A stretch of 12,052 bases of DNA from Deltaproteobacteria bacterium TL4 (lineage in GTDB: Bacteria > SAR324 > NAC60-12). Made by a program: the position numbers and the translations under genes. The notes below the pieces were generated by a model. It searched no databases and was not told the origin of the DNA. It saw only the letters and a list, made by a program, of their open reading frames with translations. The stretch's first letter is position 1. Each line of letters opens with the position of its first letter. The stretch is from positions 1 through 12,052 of the forward strand of contig JBBCAX010000105.1 in NCBI GenBank assembly GCA_051382335.1, read 5' to 3'. This document shows positions 961-11,361 of this stretch, piece by piece.

Positions 961-971
961 CTATGTACTAG
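955..971 (+). mobile_element. IS630 right end inserted at TA/CTAG inside the helicase gene
   Basis: ...ACTGACTATGTACTAG directly follows the transposase stop. Helicase coding (…KAIRMAL) ends at this CTAG on the minus strand. IS630 elements target TA. Confidence 0.7.
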
Positions 972-1223
972 TGCCATTCGTATGGCTTTGGTGGACGAAG
1001 CCACCAACCGTTGCATCAGGATCCTCAGGAAACCGATGTATCCTTTTTTGTCCTTCATGGCCTGGTTGTATCCGGTTCGGACATAATCGGTCACGGCATC
1101 ATAAAGCAACCGTTGTTCGTGATGCCGGGATTCCCAGGTAACGGGTAACAGATGAGTATGCCTTGGTTTGAACAGCGGATTGCCTTCAGCATCGGCCCGC
1201 CGTTTCTCAGTTCGGATCAGATA

Positions 1224-1356
1224 CAGGGCTGTTCAATTCTCAATTCTATCATGGATTGTAGGGCGGATTAGCAGAGCGTAATCCGCAAAAAACGTTGGAT
1301 TACACGTCGCTTTGCTCGTTAATCCAACCTACAAAAAATAGAATTGAACAGCCCTG
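1224..1356. mobile_element. 133-bp MITE with 17-bp perfect TIRs and 10-bp target-site duplication (ISAs1-like ends)
   Basis: The TIRs are CAGGGCTGTTCAATTCT (1224-1240) and AGAATTGAACAGCCCTG (1340-1356). GGATCAGATA is duplicated at 1214-1223 and 1357-1366. Removing the element and one copy restores the helicase frame ERIRLYLIRTEKRR. Confidence 0.95.
1258..1332. repeat. Inverted doublet of GTAG-type REP-like palindromes (REPIN-like) inside the MITE
   Basis: GTAG-G-GCGGATTA…TAATCCGC (1258-1286) and GTTGGATTA…TAATCCAAC-CTAC (1294-1332). Each is a hairpin with a 5' GTAG tetranucleotide, and the two lie on opposite strands. Confidence 0.8.
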
Positions 1357-2323
1357 GGATCAGATAAAGACGGATTCGTTCACGATTCACACTTTCAATA
1401 TCAGGAAACGTCTGTGGATCCAGCAGGGAAATCAGTCTGTGGAAAACATCTGTTTTTCCATGATGAGGAGTGGCGGACAACAGCAAGAGATAAGGCGCTG
1501 CTTCCGCCAACCACTGCCCCAGTTGAAAACGAGCCACACGGTCTGTACTTCCTCCCAGCCTGTGGGCTTCGTCTATGATCACCAAATCTCAGCCAGATGA
1601 GATCAGCCCTTCAAACCGTTCCTCATTGTATTGCTGTATCTGTTGTGCCGACCATCCACGGCGATTTTCCAAAGGCTTCACGGAATCCATGGAGCAGATC
1701 ACTTGATTGAACCCATTCCAGATGTTGTAATCATCTGTGAATTTCCGATACACCTCAAATTCATTGGGAGCGATCAGGTGGAAGGTTTCATCAAAATGGG
1801 TTTTCATTTCGGAGATCCACTGAGTCAGTAACTCTTTAGGAGCTACAACCAGAACTCGCTGAACGAGCCCTCTCAGTTTGAGTTCTCTCAGGATCAAACC
1901 TGCCTCAATAGTTTTGCCCAGTCCCACTTCATCGGCCAGCAGGTAGCGAACACGATCCGATGAAACAGCCTGAGATAATGCTCTGATCTGATGAGGGAGC
2001 GGTATGACGGAGGAATCAATGGGGGCGAAGAATGTTGTGGGAGAGATGGTCAGAGATACGAGCTGCCGTCACCAGGTATTTCAGTTCATGGGAACTCATG
2101 GGAGGCATTTGCTCCAGTGGAACCAATTGATCCGCTGAAGTTTTCACCACAGCATCCGCACCAGGAAGCCAGATCCGAACCACCTGGTTTCCCCATAACG
2201 TATGCTGATCCAACAATTTACAAACCTGTCGATGCTCACGACTCCATAACCAGTGTTGCTCTTCCATTCCATTGTTTTCAAAATGCAAAAAAAAACGATC
2301 AATAAAATCAGAGAATGGAATAT

Positions 2324-3799
2324 TTACTGTATTCTCAAGCGTGACAACAACTCCTGACAATATGCTTGTGCAAGTGTTAAATCACTTTCGCTAATTGATT
2401 GTTCACGATTATGTGCAATTGGATTTCTTATTTTAGCGAGCAGTTGAAATCTTTCATTCCAGTATTTCTTATTTTTTTGCTGTTCGTGTCTCTCCAATAT
2501 TTCCTGGAATCCATTCCCCCATTCTGAAGAAATAATACTCCACAAGTCATTGGGATAGGTATAATCCAACCATTGATTTGAGGCATTGATACCAAAACTT
2601 TTAAGTTCTTGGCCTATTTTTTCTTCACAATCGTTAATTAGCTTTGGAAGACTATTATTTCTCTGTTTTAATTTATTTGTCCATTCATCGCCCAAACTAT
2701 TTTCACATACTGAAGCAATGGTTTCCCGTATTAATATTTCAGTTTCACTCCACAAACTCCAAATGGGCTGCTCCCTGGAACATTTTTCAAGGTACAGTTG
2801 AAAGTGTTCTGACCAAGCCAAATATCTTTGAGAATCAATATCCTTTTTGATCAACCCATATCTCTCTAATTTAGATACTGCATCTAATTTAAGATCCCAT
2901 TTGGGTCCGACAACAGCTTTTTGTAATTGTTGGAATAAGTCATCTTCATTAAGGATTTCACGGAGATGTTCATAAAAATCATAGAGATCGCTTACAATAA
3001 TCCTGATAGAATGATCTATTGACTGATGCTCCCATGCATGGCACAAAACCATCTCACTTAAATAGGGATATCCTCCTGTATACCAATAAAGAAGCTGAAA
3101 TTCTTCCTCAGACATTTCCCAGTCTTCATGTCCACGCTGAACCATTTCTCTCAAACCTTCTTGGTTCAGAGGTTTGATATAAAATTTTTCACAGACACCA
3201 TCCAGGTTGGAAACGTCTGCAAAATGAGATTCAATTGCATATAACGATCTTCTGGAAAGAAACACAATCGACATTCCCGTTTCATAGCCTTTATCAATAA
3301 TTTCTCTCAGCCATTGAATTACTTGTTGGGCATTGGTAAATTTTCTCACATAATCAAATTCGTCAATGATTAGTTTGGTTGTTATATGAGCTGTATTGAG
3401 AGCTTTTAATGCCCTTCGGAAACGTCGATATGCGTCATAATCCTCGTCCACTACTTTATCCAATTGCTTCTGAAAGTTATAAGGAGGCTCTAGTTGATTT
3501 CGATCAAAATATTCGTTGATTTCTTCCAAAATATAATCGAATAGTTTCATGATATTTGGAAATGACGAAAGATCGCAATAAACGATAATTGGAATCAGTT
3601 TATTTTGAATATTTTGATTTATTACATGAGTAATCAGTGACGTTTTTCCGATTCTTCTCTGTCCTATAATACTTAAACTCGCTGTACTATCTAAAAGCCT
3701 GCTGATGAGATGTTCTATTTCTTTTTGTCTACCAACTAATCGTTCCCCTTGAACAGGCTTTCCATAACCAACATACGGATTGTTCTGCATTTTATTCAT
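2324..3799 (-). CDS. STAND-like P-loop ATPase with C-terminal Swt1-like HEPN domain (putative RNase effector), ~491 aa
   Basis: NPY…LVGR N-terminal motif, Walker A GQRRIGKT, Walker B LIIDEFD, and GxP motif TGGYP. The C-terminus reads SETEILIR…LDYTYPNDL…IRNPIAHNR (RxxxxH at 2411-2428). ATG 3799 overlaps the upstream TGA (ATGA). Confidence 0.85.
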   Translation of the reverse strand: MNKMQNNPYVGYGKPVQGERLVGRQKEIEHLISRLLDSTASLSIIGQRRIGKTSLITHVINQNIQNKLIPIIVYCDLSSFPNIMKLFDYILEEINEYFDRNQLEPPYNFQKQLDKVVDEDYDAYRRFRRALKALNTAHITTKLIIDEFDYVRKFTNAQQVIQWLREIIDKGYETGMSIVFLSRRSLYAIESHFADVSNLDGVCEKFYIKPLNQEGLREMVQRGHEDWEMSEEEFQLLYWYTGGYPYLSEMVLCHAWEHQSIDHSIRIIVSDLYDFYEHLREILNEDDLFQQLQKAVVGPKWDLKLDAVSKLERYGLIKKDIDSQRYLAWSEHFQLYLEKCSREQPIWSLWSETEILIRETIASVCENSLGDEWTNKLKQRNNSLPKLINDCEEKIGQELKSFGINASNQWLDYTYPNDLWSIISSEWGNGFQEILERHEQQKNKKYWNERFQLLAKIRNPIAHNREQSISESDLTLAQAYCQELLSRLRIQ

Positions 3800-6700
3800 C
3801 CAGCTAGAACTTGATTGCATTTTAACCATTCAGCAAAAAGACCAACACTGATTTTGTAATGTTGCGCATCAACGCTTTGAATGACTTCACGTTCTTGCAT
3901 GTCCTTGAGAATCAGATTCAATTTATCTCCTTGGGGTAAATCTCTTACAGTTGCATTATTTCGTTTCTCAGCGATTGGCATCAAAATACCCAAGTATTCC
4001 TCCCTAGTAAAATCTTTCACGGATTCACCAGCTGCGGTAATTAGGGGGTCAAATCTTTCGATTGGCATAATGTCACTTCCTAATACCAAGCCTGACATCT
4101 CATTGCTATCTCCCTTCCAACCATAGAGAACATTGTCAATATCAGCTTCTGTGATGAATGACGATTTTTTAGTGTTAAGATATCTCACTAGACGGTCACA
4201 AATAATGTTAGTGTAAAATGGACTTCCAGCTGTCAATTGAAACAAACGTTCAAATGCATGCCCTCTGAATCGTGAAGTACCATCATACAAAATTGGTTCT
4301 TCAGCGAGAGCTTTGGTTTCTTCATAAGACAGATAACTAATCCGTTCATCATGAGTGACTCCAAACTCGTTAGGAAATTCCTGCTTAAACTTTGGCATTG
4401 AATCCTGTCCAACAACTACTGCATTGAACATCTGAAGCTGCAATAATGCTTTCCATGTTCTCATGAATGTTGGAGCTACAATACCTTCTTTAATGTACTC
4501 ATACACATACGTGAATTCATCAATCAGCAGTATAATTTTGGGAGCATGAAATCCATTTGATTTTAATAGCTTTGTCCCGTCCCTAAATATCTTCTTGAAG
4601 GATTCATTTGGGTATTCCTTAATTTCATTTTTTGCAGGGATGTTAATAGATAGATTTAGTTCATCCTCAAAATATTCGTTTAGTTTGTCCGCACATAGTT
4701 CAATAAAATTAACCTGCTTTTTTTCATAATCTATATCTATTTCGCCAAATGATAATAAAATAGACACACAATCTTTATTCAATCGTCTTTTGATTTGATG
4801 GAGAATTGACGTTTTACCTGATCGCTTTTGCCCATATAACACAAAACATTGACCATTTGATCCTTCTGTAACTACATTGACAATTCTTTCCAATATTTCT
4901 TGTCGACCTTTGAACATAAAAGGATCTTCAACAGATTTTCCTCCAGCATAGTGTTGATACGGGTTCATGATCTCGGTAAAAGAACTACTATTTCCCAAAC
5001 GTATGGGTAGTGAAAATTCTTTACTTTTTTCCGATTCACCTTGCCGATTCCGATAACTTACGTAACAGCGAACTGTAAACACTTGTTCCTGAATATACTT
5101 AATGGTTGGCTTTATAGTAAGTTCAATTTCTTTCCGCTCTCCTCCTTTAAGCATAAAGGGAGCTTTATTCTCATGAAGCACAAGAATTCCATCTTCTTCC
5201 ACAGCATTTACATCAACACCTTCAATGGGGGCACTCCCTTTCTTTAAAAAAACTTCTAACCTGAGTGTAATTGTGTCTTTCACCAATACGTAGAAATCAT
5301 CCGATAGCACATTCACTAATTCAATCTGAGGAATTGCTTTTTTTGAGTATTCGTTAAAATCATGTTTAATGGATTCTCTTAATTTTCGTCCAAGTTCTAA
5401 AATATGCTCATATGAAATTTTTGTTGGCTTATGGCTAATGTCGTCAATCAAATGATTTAATTCATGCATTAACCTGGAACACCTAGATTCTTTCTCTATG
5501 TAATCTTGCTCATTCCAGTATCTAGCAACGTCACTCGTAATATTACTGAGTTCTAATATTCGGTTTTTATCTAATTCAAACAGCATTGAGTCTTTTAACT
5601 CCAACAGTTTGGCAGATGTTTCATCAAAATCAGCAGAGTTTAAGTAGTTTTTATCGATTAATGATCTGAGGTCAGCCTTGGTTTTCCTTTGCAAATCAAG
5701 GATACTGTCACTTTTATTTTCTCTTAATTTGTCTGAAGGAAGGAGTTTATTGAGATGAGGAAAATTCTTGCTAATCAATTTCAGTAAATATTCAACGATA
5801 TGTTTATCAATTGTTTCAAAATAATACATATCATCTATAAAAGATTGTAATGATTTCGGGTGAAATTCAAGTTTACCAAGTACAATATTAAGATCGTAAT
5901 CATTTTCAGAAATGAATTCTCCTGGTTCTGGTATTTCCGGTAAATAAGTAGCTATAAGGAAGGAAATTGGAAATTTAAAACTACGGTCATCTCTTGGTAA
6001 TGCCAATGCTTCAAGAAGATAAAACCGTCTAACATCTGGATGAACTCCATCATATGTTGCGGCTTCCCCCATAAATGCCAATGCTCTTCCAATCAATTGA
6101 GAGGGATTCTTATTCCCTGCTGATTCAGGTGAGCGTTCAGCCATTGCTGCCAACGTGATAAGCAACTTTGCCTTATCTTTTGGGCGACGTCCTCCCATTC
6201 TATCCAAATTAATGTCTACTTCTTTAAAGTCTTTACTTACGAAGTATCCCCTGACTTTAGCTCGTTCATCAACTCCAGTAAAATCTGAAAATCTAATCAA
6301 ATCTTGTGGAAACTTTGATAATGAAGATTTAAACCCTGCCAAAGATAGTAACTCTTCATAATCAGATGAAAATTTCTGTTTTTTAAAGGATTCTAACTTA
6401 TCTATGAAACCGGATAGTTGTTCATCATAGGGTGCTTTTTTCTGAGCTTCCCTCACAATCTTAAGTGCATGATCAATATCCCCATACATCATCATACAGG
6501 TTGCTTCTTGACGGAGATAATTCAAACTTTCTTTTGCGGAAGAACTTTGCTGCTTTAACTGCCGTAGAAGTTTTGCCGCCTCTTCATACTTCCCTAATTT
6601 TATATAAAATTGAGTTTTGAGGTTATCTAACGCTTTCTTATCTTCAAAACCTGTACGATGCTCATCCAACAGTTTAATTGCATCCTCCCCACGATTCAAA

Positions 6701-8226
6701 CGATTCAGCAACTGTGCTAAGTCTTTGACTGCGCTTTGTGAATATTTCCCTTTTTCAGCTATTACACTTCTGAATAATGATTCTGCTTTTTCAAATTCTC
6801 CATTTTGCTCAGCTATTTTTGCGCTTGAATAACTTTTGTTTCCTTTTGGTAAAGCAATGAATGGACTAGAAATCGGATTCTTTTCTTTATCAGAATCGAC
6901 CCAAGTAATTTTTTTTGCTACATCGTATCTACCTCTCTTATTATCAGGATCTATATCTCTATAAAATGATACCTTTTCGCCTGATATATTCGATAAGAGT
7001 TTATGCTTGAGTTCGTAATCCGTTATATTTGATATTGGGAAGAAAAATGGTTCTTGATCGTTACTATTAATATAACCGTAGCCTTTCTCTGGATATACAG
7101 CGGTTATGTAACCCAATAATGTCGTTTCATTTTTTGCAGATGAAGTATGTTTTATTGGTTGAGGGATTGGTTCTATCACAGGTGCTTTAATCGGTTGAAA
7201 AACTGCTGATGCCATTGCCATCTTTGATGCCTCAATCACATCACCATTGTAGGCAGCTTCTGCAGATTCAGGGTACTTTTCCTTTAAAGCATACGCCAAT
7301 AACAAATGATAAAGGTATTTGCCCTCTTCGGTAATCAATTTGCTTTGAATTTCCGCTAACCCTCTTAATTCTTTATCAACACAATGTGTCAGGCATGAAC
7401 CAATAGAGATTAATATTTCTTTTTCGTTAATATTTTCTTCTCGTTCTTCATCATGGAAAAATAATTGTATTAACCATTGAACGGCCTCTTCCCATTTTTT
7501 TTCAACAACACAGATACGTGCCAATCCAAGCAAGGCTTTCTCGTTATAGGTCAGACATGCTTTTTGGAATTCACTTTTCGCTATGGGGAATTTATCTATG
7601 GCCAAAGCAATAAATCCAGCGATATAATAAACATTAGAGCTTTTTAATCGTTCTGAAAAACGCAACACTTCAGGCAACAAATCATTAATTCGATTCATTT
7701 CCTTAATTTTACACGCATGCTCGTACTTACTTTTGATTCGTGACAGATCCTGCTGATCTTCTTTGATTAGGTCTTTTATCTTAAAATCCACAGGAGGTAG
7801 CGTAATACTTGGTGGCGCTTGAAAAGCTGAGAAAGCAAAGGGTGGGATTTTTTCCTGTTTTTTGATTTCGTGTTCAGGAACAACTGTAGCCTCTTGTTCT
7901 TTATATTTTTTATCTGAAGTTGTCTCCTTTTGGGGGATCGGAACGTCTGCAAGGTTAGTTTGTTCAGAAGATTCTTCAGGAGATTCTTTTAGGTCATTTG
8001 TAGGTTGCTTTTCCTTATCTGCAACGAAAGAATTTTCTAATACTTCAAATTCCAAAATAGAATCTGAACGCACCAATCGGACTTTACCAGAAATCTGAAC
8101 GACAACTCCTAAATCAGTAATTTCGATAATAGTCCCTTCAATCGTTGAATCATTTTTTAAATGCAACGCAATTCGGCAATCTACAGGAGCATATTTTTTT
8201 ATTAGATGTATTATTTCAGACATCAC
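3796..8226 (-). CDS. 1476-aa multidomain protein: Sm-like N-terminus, TPR-like repeats, cold-shock (OB) domain, TPRs, Ig-like domain, C-terminal STAND-like ATPase
   Basis: Long intact ORF with GCGGGGA upstream of GTG/ATG (8226/8223). CSD-like GYITAVYPEKGYGYI…PFFFPISNI (~7120-6900). TPR-like GEFEKAESLF, GKYEEAAKLL and GDIDHALKIV. ATPase: NPY…FKGR, Walker A GQKRSGKT (4810-4833), Walker B LLIDEF, TAGSP. Accessory domain calls are by eye. Confidence 0.82.
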   Translation of the reverse strand: MMSEIIHLIKKYAPVDCRIALHLKNDSTIEGTIIEITDLGVVVQISGKVRLVRSDSILEFEVLENSFVADKEKQPTNDLKESPEESSEQTNLADVPIPQKETTSDKKYKEQEATVVPEHEIKKQEKIPPFAFSAFQAPPSITLPPVDFKIKDLIKEDQQDLSRIKSKYEHACKIKEMNRINDLLPEVLRFSERLKSSNVYYIAGFIALAIDKFPIAKSEFQKACLTYNEKALLGLARICVVEKKWEEAVQWLIQLFFHDEEREENINEKEILISIGSCLTHCVDKELRGLAEIQSKLITEEGKYLYHLLLAYALKEKYPESAEAAYNGDVIEASKMAMASAVFQPIKAPVIEPIPQPIKHTSSAKNETTLLGYITAVYPEKGYGYINSNDQEPFFFPISNITDYELKHKLLSNISGEKVSFYRDIDPDNKRGRYDVAKKITWVDSDKEKNPISSPFIALPKGNKSYSSAKIAEQNGEFEKAESLFRSVIAEKGKYSQSAVKDLAQLLNRLNRGEDAIKLLDEHRTGFEDKKALDNLKTQFYIKLGKYEEAAKLLRQLKQQSSSAKESLNYLRQEATCMMMYGDIDHALKIVREAQKKAPYDEQLSGFIDKLESFKKQKFSSDYEELLSLAGFKSSLSKFPQDLIRFSDFTGVDERAKVRGYFVSKDFKEVDINLDRMGGRRPKDKAKLLITLAAMAERSPESAGNKNPSQLIGRALAFMGEAATYDGVHPDVRRFYLLEALALPRDDRSFKFPISFLIATYLPEIPEPGEFISENDYDLNIVLGKLEFHPKSLQSFIDDMYYFETIDKHIVEYLLKLISKNFPHLNKLLPSDKLRENKSDSILDLQRKTKADLRSLIDKNYLNSADFDETSAKLLELKDSMLFELDKNRILELSNITSDVARYWNEQDYIEKESRCSRLMHELNHLIDDISHKPTKISYEHILELGRKLRESIKHDFNEYSKKAIPQIELVNVLSDDFYVLVKDTITLRLEVFLKKGSAPIEGVDVNAVEEDGILVLHENKAPFMLKGGERKEIELTIKPTIKYIQEQVFTVRCYVSYRNRQGESEKSKEFSLPIRLGNSSSFTEIMNPYQHYAGGKSVEDPFMFKGRQEILERIVNVVTEGSNGQCFVLYGQKRSGKTSILHQIKRRLNKDCVSILLSFGEIDIDYEKKQVNFIELCADKLNEYFEDELNLSINIPAKNEIKEYPNESFKKIFRDGTKLLKSNGFHAPKIILLIDEFTYVYEYIKEGIVAPTFMRTWKALLQLQMFNAVVVGQDSMPKFKQEFPNEFGVTHDERISYLSYEETKALAEEPILYDGTSRFRGHAFERLFQLTAGSPFYTNIICDRLVRYLNTKKSSFITEADIDNVLYGWKGDSNEMSGLVLGSDIMPIERFDPLITAAGESVKDFTREEYLGILMPIAEKRNNATVRDLPQGDKLNLILKDMQEREVIQSVDAQHYKISVGLFAEWLKCNQVLAG

Positions 8227-8314: not shown

Positions 8315-9988
8315 TCAATTTTCAATTTCCAACATTTCCAGAAGATCCCCTCGCCTGAACGTGGCGGAAAGCTGTTGTAATGAAATTTTTCTGCTGCCGT
8401 AGCATGTTTCCAGTGCACCTGTGAGTGTTTCCACAGCCTGATTGTGGTATTTGGCACGATTATCTTCAAAATGCTTAAGTATCTCCTGAAAATTACGATG
8501 GGAAACCTGGTCCAGTGTTGTCCCACGATCCTTTAAAAGATTATGAGCGATCAGCATGGATAAATAGTGTGACGCATAAGGAAGAAAGCTTGCTGGAGTT
8601 GATGTCGTGGGACGTTTCCTTTCGTTCTCCACGTGGCGAAAGATCAACACGGCCAGTAACGCCTGAGCCGCATTCAGATTCTTGAAAAGATCATCATACA
8701 ATTTTCCAAAGTGTTCTCTACGGCGGAATTTTGCCTGATGTGGTTTTTTCCTCCAAATAGCAAGCGCCGATTCGGCAACAGTAGAACTGGTGATCACACT
8801 GGACCCACCTCCTCCTTCTTCACGCTGCCGTTTGTATTGATATCCAAGATCAGATATGCCGATTTCCAGTTGTTTCTGGATTTCATCATTGGAACGCAAA
8901 TCACGAAGGTCTACAGGATTCTGACTGTTGGTCGCATAGGTGATATCCTGCACAAAATCCTTATGGGTCTCCGACAGTTGGTAAATACGAACCATGACAT
9001 AGGCCGATTCTCCAGCTATATTGGGTAAGCTGCCATTCAGGGTTTCCTGGATGGTTTTACAGGTCTGGCCTCCATTAACAACCTGCATGTTCTTGATCTG
9101 AACCTTGTAGTCTGATTTTTGAAAAGCGTTGTAATCAAACTTGTCACAAACCACTGTAATCCCGTTGTTGTAGAAATAGAACTTGTCTGATCTCTGGGGA
9201 TCGCAAAGCGTTTCATGGATGGCGGTGTTGACTCGATTTGTGTGAAGGCCAAGATAACGACGGAGATTTCGTTCTAAAAGTTTGTCGCCATGATCATTGA
9301 ACAGTCGTTGAATTTCCTGAGCGGATACCCGTCCGATCAGCACACGCATGTAATTCATATCCTCAACAATCGCCTGACCATTCAACGTCAGAGTCGTGTC
9401 CACTTTTTTGACTCGTTGAAGGATGTTGACAATAGAGTCATGGTTAAAATGGACAAAATCGACTTTGTCTCCAAAATCCTTTTTGGCGTCATTGATCCAG
9501 TTCTCTGCCTGTTCGGTCCAACGCTCACCGTTATTGCAAAGGATCACCCTCACATTGGGGATATAAGCGTCACGGATCAACGAACGAATCTCTTCAATTT
9601 TGGGAGCGATTTTATCGTTCAGAGTCACCTTCCTGAATGGATCAAACAGCACGCTCACCGTATCCACGGCTTTCTGCACGCCGTTCTCAGGAAAGTTGGC
9701 TGTCCCTTCAAGGTCGTTGATTTTATATTTTCCCTGAAAGATGGTGACCATAAACTCTCCATCCTCTACCTCTCCGATATGCAATCCATCCACTCCAGCG
9801 TCATTACCACCTTCCGTAATCAGTTCGGCAGATTCATCCATGAGTATCTCAAGACAAGTAGACATACATAAAAGGACAAATGCCGTGGATTTCTTTTTGT
9901 TCACGTCATTTCCAGCAGGCAGCCATTCAGGATGATCTTCCACAATTCCTGTAACCCGCTGGTCTATAATGCTCGCATTGATATTCAT
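8315..9988 (-). CDS. AIPR family protein (abortive infection phage resistance), 557 aa
   Basis: Family motifs NLRRYLG, FYFYNNGITVVC, QVVNGGQT and TNSQNPV…DLRSND. The N-terminal DAGVDG…FQGKY is a nuclease-like motif. Confidence 0.9.
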   Translation of the reverse strand: MNINASIIDQRVTGIVEDHPEWLPAGNDVNKKKSTAFVLLCMSTCLEILMDESAELITEGGNDAGVDGLHIGEVEDGEFMVTIFQGKYKINDLEGTANFPENGVQKAVDTVSVLFDPFRKVTLNDKIAPKIEEIRSLIRDAYIPNVRVILCNNGERWTEQAENWINDAKKDFGDKVDFVHFNHDSIVNILQRVKKVDTTLTLNGQAIVEDMNYMRVLIGRVSAQEIQRLFNDHGDKLLERNLRRYLGLHTNRVNTAIHETLCDPQRSDKFYFYNNGITVVCDKFDYNAFQKSDYKVQIKNMQVVNGGQTCKTIQETLNGSLPNIAGESAYVMVRIYQLSETHKDFVQDITYATNSQNPVDLRDLRSNDEIQKQLEIGISDLGYQYKRQREEGGGGSSVITSSTVAESALAIWRKKPHQAKFRRREHFGKLYDDLFKNLNAAQALLAVLIFRHVENERKRPTTSTPASFLPYASHYLSMLIAHNLLKDRGTTLDQVSHRNFQEILKHFEDNRAKYHNQAVETLTGALETCYGSRKISLQQLSATFRRGDLLEMLEIEN

Positions 9989-9998
9989 AATTTTATCT

Positions 9999-10063
9999 TC
10001 AGAAATGTCTTTCCATCAGTTCATGAATCTTTGTTTGAAAGTAACGAAAACTGGGGGATGCAT
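9999..10063 (-). pseudogene. Deletion scar of the ATPase's partner gene (DUF4276-like)
   Basis: ATGCAT lies 5 nt after the ATPase stop and is joined, in another frame, to ASPSFRYFQTKIHELMERHF*. This resembles the SPSF C-terminus of DUF4276-type proteins that usually follow such ATPases. Confidence 0.55.
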
Positions 10064-10068
10064 GATTA

Positions 10069-11361
10069 TTACCTCGCATCCAGATAATCGCTGTACCAAA
10101 GCCCGCCCAAAGGCAATCCTTCGGCTACCATGTTTTTGACAATGGCATCATCACTTGATCTGCGTATCGTTGAAAAACCGTCTGCACCTTTTTCAAGGAC
10201 CCAAACTTCGTTGGGCTCCAGCGCGTCCACAAAATAGGGTTGATGGGTCGTAATGAAAACCTGAGATCCTCCTTTGCGGCCAGTCGCATGCTCACGAAAT
10301 TCTGTGGCCAGAGATTCGAGCAGCTTATGGTACAAGCCGTTTTCCGGTTCTTCAATGCAGAGGAACGGTGGTGAGGTTGGGTCTTCCAGTAACAGAAGAT
10401 AAGCAAAGACCTTGAGTGTTCCATCAGACATTTGTTGTGCGAAAAACTGGTCCTGAAAGCCTCTGTCGTTGAACCTGAGTAGCAATCGACCATCGTTGGT
10501 TTTTTCAGTGTCAATTTTGTCTACTCCTGGAATCTTGTCAGCAATTCTGTTCAAAATAGCATGGAAACGCTTGGGGTGCTCACGCTCCATAAATTGCACG
10601 ACATTGCCAAGATTATCGCCGTGTATATTGAGATGTTTCTGTGGGCCTGCAAGCGGTAGACTACGTGCGGAATCTGGAGTGAAATAGCTGAGGTACCAAC
10701 CTTCGATAAACCTACGAAACGCTGAAATTCTCGGATGCTGTTTCAATGCTCCCAATGTGGCAATTCCTAATTTGCGTTTGTCCTCAAGTTCTACCACCTC
10801 GGTTGTCCTGGATTCTTCTTTTGTCTCGTCTGATTTAAGGGATTCCATCAGATCCAGCAGGTCAAAATTTCCCTTACCTTCATCAATCTGACGACCTTCC
10901 TGTTCACCTTTCCAAACAATACCTTTACCGCTATTCAGAACTAAAAAGGAAAAAGGCCAACCAGGTTTTTGACCTTTACGTCGCTGTCTGAGTCGCTCTT
11001 TCAGAACTTGCGGTCTCCCTGAATCATCAAGATCAATTGACAGTTCGTAGGTAATTGGGCGAGCATTACCATCTTCCTTATAATACACCTCAAACCCAAT
11101 GGGACCGCTTTGCCCCTGAGATAATAATTTGGCGAAACCACCTCGCCCTCTAGCATCACAGGCTTCCTCGACTCCTAACTTTAGGCAATCCGCCAAGAAA
11201 CCAAAAGCATCAAACAAAGTGCTTTTATCAACTCCATTTTTACCAATGACTGCGGTCATGGGTGTAAGTGGTTCGGTTTGTTGCTGGTTCCACAAACGAC
11301 CAAGTGTGATATTTTTCAATGCTCTGAAGTTCTGTATTCTGAAGCCTTCTATCTTTGCCAT
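10069..11361 (-). CDS. ABC-type (AAA_21/AAA_15) ATPase, 430 aa, with degenerate Walker A
   Basis: The true start is MAKIEGFRIQNFRAL at ATG 11361, with AGGAGG upstream and a TAATG overlap with the native methylase stop. Walker A GKNGVDKST, signature MSDGT, Walker B LCIEEPENGL, H-loop TTHQP. Confidence 0.88.
   Translation of the reverse strand: MAKIEGFRIQNFRALKNITLGRLWNQQQTEPLTPMTAVIGKNGVDKSTLFDAFGFLADCLKLGVEEACDARGRGGFAKLLSQGQSGPIGFEVYYKEDGNARPITYELSIDLDDSGRPQVLKERLRQRRKGQKPGWPFSFLVLNSGKGIVWKGEQEGRQIDEGKGNFDLLDLMESLKSDETKEESRTTEVVELEDKRKLGIATLGALKQHPRISAFRRFIEGWYLSYFTPDSARSLPLAGPQKHLNIHGDNLGNVVQFMEREHPKRFHAILNRIADKIPGVDKIDTEKTNDGRLLLRFNDRGFQDQFFAQQMSDGTLKVFAYLLLLEDPTSPPFLCIEEPENGLYHKLLESLATEFREHATGRKGGSQVFITTHQPYFVDALEPNEVWVLEKGADGFSTIRRSSDDAIVKNMVAEGLPLGGLWYSDYLDAR

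Follow-up and report, generated by a model that had tools for sequence, protein, structure and literature searches.

The 12,052-nt contig JBBCAX010000105.1 of Deltaproteobacteria bacterium TL4 (assembly GCA_051382335.1), analysed here as a whole (contig C105) and referred to as the window, encodes a pair of STAND ATPases that probably acts as a split NLR-type immune switch, with RNA cleavage by a HEPN domain aborting infection. The two genes are coupled and co-inherited, occur as natural fusions among their relatives, keep intact ATPase and HEPN motifs and follow a domain order with a sensor-like arm before the first ATPase and the HEPN domain behind the second; the folds of both proteins are predicted from models, and the trigger, hetero-oligomer, RNase activity and anti-phage outcome are proposed by analogy with STAND and HEPN biology. 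The family is real and widespread, and what is new in it is the combination of two intact ATPases with an Sm/Hfq-TPR-cold-shock-Ig arm, within a kind of system that had been predicted before.

Both open reading frames (ORFs) are intact and lie on the minus strand, large then small. The large gene (3796-8223) sits in an ORF of 3796-8226 with a GTG-ATG start and encodes 1475 amino acids counted from the ATG, and the small gene (2324-3799) sits in an ORF of 2324-3829 and encodes 491 amino acids counted from an ATG that overlaps the stop codon of the large gene. This ATGA (3799-3796), legible in the sequence itself, bears out the earlier sequence-only reading of two intact ORFs joined in this way and suggests translational coupling. 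Scans for promoters and terminators were at chance (25 vs 27.6 and 13 vs 9.8, respectively), and a look-up of sequencing runs listed none.

The small protein comprises a STAND ATPase with a winged helix (ATPase 2; 2771-3787, minus strand), recognized by Foldseek and VIA-align, and, directly after the winged helix with no TPR between, a Swt1-like HEPN domain (2327-2764, minus strand) that is a predicted RNase on the basis of Pfam and homologue conservation. The motifs named in the sequence-only reading are all present: Walker A as GQRRIGKT (3641-3664), hhhDEF as LIIDEFD (3353-3373) and RNPIAH (2411-2428) in the small protein, with Walker A GQKRSGKT (4813-4836) and Walker B LLIDEF (4516-4536) in the large one. 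Pfam ATPase_2 matches the small protein with an E-value of 1.4e-16, and HEPN_Swt1 scores 27.5 bits, exactly the cut-off, and matches 37/44 small homologues at E<=0.01. Since Walker A/B and R465, P467 and H470 (numbered on the 498-residue P0001) are invariant in 44/44 small homologues, and GQKRxGKxS and DEF in 52/52 large homologues, all gathered by phmmer with no motif selection, the alignments argue that the Walker and HEPN motifs are conserved rather than chance. The small-protein Walker A is likewise found in 75/77 loci picked by the large gene, and the HEPN motif in 70/85 pairs and 118/140 distant representatives.

The AlphaFold2 model of the small protein (mean pLDDT 91.1, pTM 0.82) shows an ATPase, a winged helix and a confident helical C-terminal domain. 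The closest solved folds to ATPase 2 and its winged helix in Foldseek are the archaeal PAB2304 and SSO1545, then ORC/Cdc6, and VIA-align places PAB2304 at Z 22.1 (root-mean-square deviation 4.6, 314 aligned) and SSO1545 at Z 19.4 (4.9, 309 aligned); TnsC, like ORC/Cdc6, is among the top structural neighbours. ATPase neighbours filled both fold-search lists, so that the HEPN fold call derives from profile and motif, which make a Swt1-like HEPN the likely identity of the C-terminus, as the sequence-only reading had proposed for the effector. ATPase 1 of the large protein is homologous to ATPase 2 (HHalign probability 99%, 19% identity), and by sequence comparison the two are distant paralogues. 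An arginine is kept at R172 in 85/86 small proteins and at R1294 in 83/86 large proteins, and these are candidates for the arginine finger that nSTAND2 systems conserve in both subunits.

The large protein is ordered as an Sm/Hfq-like barrel, a disordered linker, a first TPR block, a cold-shock/OB domain, a second TPR block with a helical bundle, an Ig-like domain and a STAND ATPase with a winged helix, and an AlphaFold2 model covers residues 2-1082 (1081 residues, mean pLDDT 87.5). Foldseek with this 1081-residue model returned generic TPR solenoids only, with TM-scores by query length <=0.16, and the Sm, OB and Ig assignments come from topology and profile matches. STAND ATPase 1 and its winged helix (3817-4974, minus strand) are identified by Pfam (ATPase_2, E 5e-8) and conservation. 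On the N-terminal side of the ATPase, where the sequence-only reading had placed TPRs, lie a first TPR-like block (about residues 155-341; 7204-7764, minus strand), seen as helical repeats in the model and matched by profile to designed TPR proteins, and a second block continuing into a long helical region (about residues 464-963; 5338-6837, minus strand), supported by Pfam TPR_19 (E 8e-12) and the model and likely to be the sensor surface. The proposal of a sensor-like TPR/OB arm is supported by these matches.

The cold-shock-like OB domain (about residues 369-442; 6901-7122, minus strand) that the sequence-only reading suspected is borne out at the level of the family: the family profile matches the cold-shock proteins 2k5n (E 1.5e-4) and 2kcm in the PDB, one homologue carries a Pfam CSD match above cut-off, and the region is modelled as a five-strand barrel, with no Pfam CSD match at E<=0.1 in the window's own protein. 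Further domains went unnoticed in that reading. The N-terminal small beta-barrel (residues 4-63; 8038-8217, minus strand), called from model and family profile, is modelled as one helix and five strands with a pLDDT of about 95. Its family profile finds the biotin-ligase C-terminal barrel best (E 2.7e-6), then Hfq 4nl2 (E 1.1e-4), Asl2047, Edc3 and Lsm; Pfam matches are weak and scattered, with the RimP C-terminal SH3 in 16/63, and an ESM Atlas look-up of this domain gave only leads below 0.9. The name Sm/Hfq-like therefore stands for a predicted fold and not for a demonstrated function, a non-Sm SH3-type barrel scoring better. Between the helical region and the ATPase is an all-beta domain (about residues 968-1077; 4996-5325, minus strand), present in 77/80 partners, whose Ig-like label is a reading of the modelled strand pattern.

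Large and small genes form one conserved unit. A scan of species genomes with an alignment of the large protein gave 307 pattern matches; 219 proved to be relatives, the best 80 of which were used. A scan of the viral collection gave 1 locus among 43 matches; with the small protein as a single query, a scan of genome contigs gave 0 relatives among 39 pattern matches, where the alignment-based scan succeeded. Judging by their names, the relatives come from Chloroflexota, cyanobacteria, Bacteroidota, Planctomycetota, Actinomycetota, spirochaetes and several groups of proteobacteria, with a few from archaea. With three loci that end within the large gene set aside, the small gene comes next downstream in 77 of the 78 that could be evaluated, in most of them no more than about 35 bases away; in L073 a transposase-like ORF lies between the two, and in the sole exception, L060, the large gene is followed by an EAD1-STAND-trypsin gene. 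A reverse scan of metagenomes yielded at least 608 matches, from which 77 loci were kept, 58 with the HEPN part and 43 with enough upstream DNA, and the large gene lies directly upstream in 40 of these 43 evaluable HEPN-bearing loci, some metagenome loci being duplicates of each other. One of the other three (L086) is interrupted by an insertion sequence (IS), and L122 and L123 are orphan small genes, that of L122 (1161-1898) standing about 400 bases behind a gene that by eye resembles a PspA/IM30-type coiled coil. The two homologues thus co-occur as the sequence-only reading had anticipated, and they share a history: for 86 non-identical pairs, the large sequences of which were picked by their Walker A, the ATPase trees give a distance correlation of r=0.93 that 0/999 permutations reach, with 33/45 supported splits in common. 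A third conserved partner gene was considered and rejected: apart from housekeeping context that loci have in common, the 838 neighbouring ORFs contain no recurrent gene.

When 1.84 billion representatives were searched by profile, 830 matched at E<=1e-30, relatives without HEPN among them. Natural fusions occur on three contigs (P0247, P0274 and P0275; 2295-2329 amino acids), in which TPR, STAND1, STAND2 and HEPN follow one another in a single chain with all motifs; the first one found has 2297 amino acids, and the other two are identical over their overlap and 92% alike to the first. As read from these sequences, the fusion supports joint action of the two proteins. In residues 1-650 of P0247 the Sm and cold-shock region is replaced by repeats of a beta-rich plus helical unit, which by eye resemble degenerate cold-shock modules and have no Pfam match.

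In the mechanism that we propose, a molecule from the invader would bind the TPR arm of the large protein and thereby free STAND ATPase 1. The freed module would nucleate an ATP-driven ring with STAND ATPase 2 of the small protein, and this ring would pair up the HEPN domains. HEPN RNases need dimers, and the paired domains would cut cellular RNA, halting the infected cell; some small proteins (P0134, P0168, L037 and L041) carry HEPN in tandem, which is compatible with a dimeric active site. The cold-shock and Sm/Hfq-like domains, as modelled, likely bind RNA, either feeding the HEPN sites or sensing. Substrate handling is slightly favoured over sensing because some homologues place a cold-shock domain directly behind HEPN on the small protein (P0249, E 1.4e-10, and P0273).

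Both ends of the system vary among relatives. In a survey of 80 non-identical pairs in which the large ORF is complete at its 5' end, and for which the profiles were built largely from the same sequences, the Sm domain was found in 63, the cold-shock domain in 60, TPR block 2 in 67, the Ig-like domain in 77, the HEPN motif in 65 and all five in 53, some of the partial cases being frameshifted fragments. In the effector position, the distant pair L156 carries TIR, and short helical tails that match no Pfam family replace HEPN in L021 (14375-15700) and L051 (13185-14825); P0199 has a similar tail, also without a Pfam family, behind a degenerate HEPN. Together with the trypsin gene mentioned above, these sequences indicate that the effector slot is swappable. 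L156 (6147-10760) and L155 are distant STAND pairs with a first protein of about 960 amino acids and a second STAND with TIR or other tails, and one locus holds two pairs of this sort. On plasmid NZ_MH220285.1, L189 (1014-8779) is a sister operon of hsdR, a fusion of methylase and STAND1-like ATPase, and a STAND2-like gene without Walker A or HEPN motif. Because both flanking parts vary among relatives, the sequences point to a stable core of X-STAND1 then STAND2-Y.

Reduced actinobacterial pairs (L010-L016, L019, L020 and L070) consist of a helical bundle, Ig-like domain and ATPase, plus a bare ATPase, and an Sm-like domain suspected by eye in these minimal partners was not confirmed by profile at E<=1e-3. 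Six of them share an upstream gene in divergent orientation, encoding about 170-340 amino acids, that might provide the absent effector; the single member scanned with Pfam had no match. In L049, L055, L056 and L058 (Bacteroidota and one Methanolobus metagenome-assembled genome), the pair is adjoined by a 480-residue AAA_30 helicase-like gene, a possible accessory gene of that subgroup.

The setting of the pair in the window, which the sequence-only reading did not describe, is BREX-like. Read along the minus strand, a pglXI-like methylase gene of which the 3' end is present (PADLOC PglXI, E 4e-62) is followed by a HEC-01A-like ATPase (AAA_21), then AIPR, the large and small genes and brxHII-like pieces. 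The AIPR gene and the HEC-01A-like ATPase (E 2.6e-195) occupy 8315-11361 (minus strand), and no HEC-01 partner nuclease gene is evident beside the latter. The brxHII-like SNF2 helicase pseudogene (966-2267, minus strand) has two frameshifts and an internal TGA and ends at IS remains; elsewhere in the genome, contig C347 carries intact brxHII and pglZ, and contig C345 another broken brxHII start. Transposase fragments at positions 1-1000 (weak DDE_Tnp_1 match) have many partial copies in the genome, which probably explains why the contig breaks here. The pair is embedded in a decayed BREX type III-like locus, yet is itself intact. It differs in GC content (35%) from the genome (43%) and the flanks (45-50%), and no full-length orthologue was found in 60 related genomes searched, 4 of which gave ATPase-only matches (<=96 bits). 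With its low GC, the lack of a full orthologue among these relatives and its place among pglXI, HEC-01A-like, AIPR and brxHII-like genes, the pair is most likely a mobile module. Membership as a regular BREX component was ruled out, as other loci have no BREX genes and the GC content differs from that of the flanks.

Several observations weigh against an abortive-infection role for the pair. The enrichment in defence islands expected by the sequence-only reading proved weak: with 115 proteins from the flanks of 18 loci set against 120 from 18 control regions on the same contigs (2/20 pairs omitted for size, and criteria set after seeing the data), PADLOC matches at E<=1e-20, generic ABC matches removed, lie near 8/18 loci vs 4/18 controls (p=0.14), and at >=70% profile coverage near 6/18 vs 2/18 (p=0.11). 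A Pfam scan of 112 of the 264 nearest neighbours found methylases, helicases, a CRISPR-associated gene, integrases and transposases, with mostly housekeeping genes, amid which many loci stand; just one locus came from the viral collection, and no plasmid match was found for the small protein. The HEPN motif is missing in 15/85 pairs, about nine actinobacterial pairs have neither TPR, cold-shock nor HEPN and no evident effector, orphan small genes exist in L122 and L123, and the matching trees speak for co-inheritance, not contact. No experiment on the paired-STAND family was found in the openly readable literature.

Part of this evidence bears on a different role for the same parts, a stress or RNA-quality-control switch acting in dormancy signalling and not against phages. 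Such a switch would agree with the single copy in 26/27 carrier genomes, with the frequent housekeeping surroundings (neighbours are shared by the Latescibacterota loci L074, L077 and L078) and with the non-significant defence enrichment; however, the pair is patchily distributed among phyla and was not found in the 60 relatives searched, forms a low-GC insertion in a BREX-like locus and has relatives in which TIR, trypsin and HEPN replace one another as effectors, all of which argues otherwise, and we consider such a switch quite unlikely. Improbable, and the least favoured, is a guard or toxin-antitoxin arrangement, in which the small STAND-HEPN protein would be toxic by default and restrained by the large protein until phage factors disturb the latter. 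Tight linkage and an inhibitor-first gene order with translational coupling are what such a model would predict, but small genes with an intact HEPN occur without an upstream large gene (L122 and L123) or behind a frameshifted one (L038), an objection softened by the chance that the assembly is wrong at these loci or that the partner is encoded elsewhere, and the single-chain fusion fits activation as well as inhibition. A third alternative leaves the HEPN output unchanged and concerns the trigger, here nucleic acid of the invader, RNA or DNA, to which the Sm/Hfq-like and cold-shock domains, or the ORC/Cdc6-like ring of ATPase and winged helix itself, would bind while the TPRs serve as scaffold. 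In favour of this trigger are the two folds of the large protein predicted to bind RNA, the ranking of ORC/Cdc6 and TnsC near the top of the structural neighbours of ATPase 2, the sister operon in which ATPase 1 is fused to a type I methylase behind hsdR, and the nucleic-acid sensing proposed for related STANDs (PMC8195603). It nonetheless appears unlikely, given that cold-shock and Sm domains are detected in just 60 and 63 of 80 partners, that a cold-shock domain behind HEPN fits substrate binding, and that characterised bacterial STAND-TPR sensors bind phage proteins (PMC13581612). The split switch with a TPR sensor and HEPN output is retained as the probable reading.

The sequence-only reading did not recognise a catalogued system in the pair, and neither protein matches a system in PADLOC v2 or NCBIfam beyond fragments (PDC-S27, E 2.5e-7, partial; PDC-S01, E 2.5e-4), NCBIfam DS8 reaching 24 bits vs a cut-off of 790. 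No close relative was found among solved structures, and no description or test of the large/small pair in the open full text of the literature, a scope that leaves aside subscription-only papers. The claim of a new system stands as to catalogues, yet a two-gene design of X-STAND then STAND-HEPN was predicted in 2021. Kaur, Iyer, Burroughs and Aravind (eLife 2021; PMC8195603) predict, by computation only, a mobile two-gene nSTAND2 counter-invader operon ordered '??+STAND+wHTH -> STAND+wHTH+effector', with HEPN as a common C-terminal effector and a toroidal hetero-multimer proposed. The likeness lies in two adjacent genes with a STAND module in each and the effector C-terminal on the second. 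The second nSTAND2 protein, of about 590-770 amino acids and mostly from Proteobacteria, is described there as having eroded NTP-binding motifs followed by TPRs and HEPN or GT4, whereas the second STAND here keeps Walker A/B and is followed directly, behind its winged helix, by a Swt1-like HEPN in a protein of about 490 amino acids; the first gene here, moreover, has a defined Sm/Hfq-TPR-CSD-TPR-Ig arm. Pfam nSTAND2 (PF20702) has 0 matches in the genome at E<=10 and matches 2/44 small homologues at E<=0.01; because P0258 and the partner of the distant L144 pass its cut-off, the two families are related. Membership of nSTAND2 itself was rejected because the pair lacks three of its defining features: an inactive second ATPase, TPRs before HEPN and a PF20702 match.

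Swt1-like HEPN domains, mostly active, were listed with STAND-ATPase, TPR and S1 by Anantharaman et al. 2013, with Npun_F6454, MED222_16016 and Desac_1927 as examples (PMC3710099, Table 1). The domain types agree with those of the present pair (Swt1-like HEPN, STAND, TPR and an OB-fold RNA-binding domain), but the proteins are given as fusions and a two-STAND operon is not described in the accessible part of that article; compared by description, not sequence, part of the paired family may already be tabulated there. Avs/AVAST systems likewise unite a STAND switch, a TPR sensor and a nuclease-type effector, activated by oligomerisation (PMC13581612), a step that the pair would share. They are single chains ordered effector-STAND-sensor, whereas the present pair puts its sensor ahead of one STAND and its effector behind the other, which a separate gene encodes. 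The inverted and split order claimed in the sequence-only reading therefore holds for domain order and separate genes, the split being lost in the fusion, which keeps sensor-STAND-STAND-HEPN. On domain order, which differs even in the fusion, Avs/AVAST membership was rejected, and the Avs models of PADLOC and NCBIfam give no match. Swt1, HEPN and nSTAND2 were not found in the readable part of the supplements of PMC13581612, and the paired family may be one of the 589 STAND clades of that survey without bearing a name there. DARNA (bioRxiv 10.64898/2026.02.22.705581), which according to the accessible part of its preprint has no ATPase, was set aside as unrelated.

The closest solved folds, PAB2304 (2qen) and SSO1545 (2fna), are stand-alone ATPases with 14-17% identity to ATPase 2 and without HEPN or a large partner; in the classification of Leipe et al. 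2004 they are reportedly MNS-type STAND ATPases. Plant and animal sensor/helper NLR pairs divide sensing and execution between two STAND proteins. The comparison with them is an analogy only, as STAND clade, domain order and effector differ, and implies no orthology.

Bacterial NLR-like sensors described in PMC13581612 are single chains that bind phage proteins. A bolder and less probable reading is that the family is a widespread bacterial and archaeal paired NLR, with two intact STANDs in one hetero-ring and a sensor in which Sm/Hfq-like and cold-shock domains detect or deliver RNA. If true, the pair would make up a prokaryotic NLR that responds to RNA, divides sensor from executor and has a swappable effector slot (HEPN, TIR or helical tails). 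A two-protein STAND switch has been predicted, a test of one was not found in the open literature, and the present pair offers a clean test case, with two genes, both ATPases intact, a nuclease motif open to knock-out and a natural fusion, and with reduced and enlarged forms in nature from which the dispensable domains can be read. If phage protection is true, the sensor/helper division known from plant and animal NLRs would extend to prokaryotes, and should triggering run through the Sm/Hfq-like or cold-shock domains, RNA would be added to the ligands of STAND receptors.

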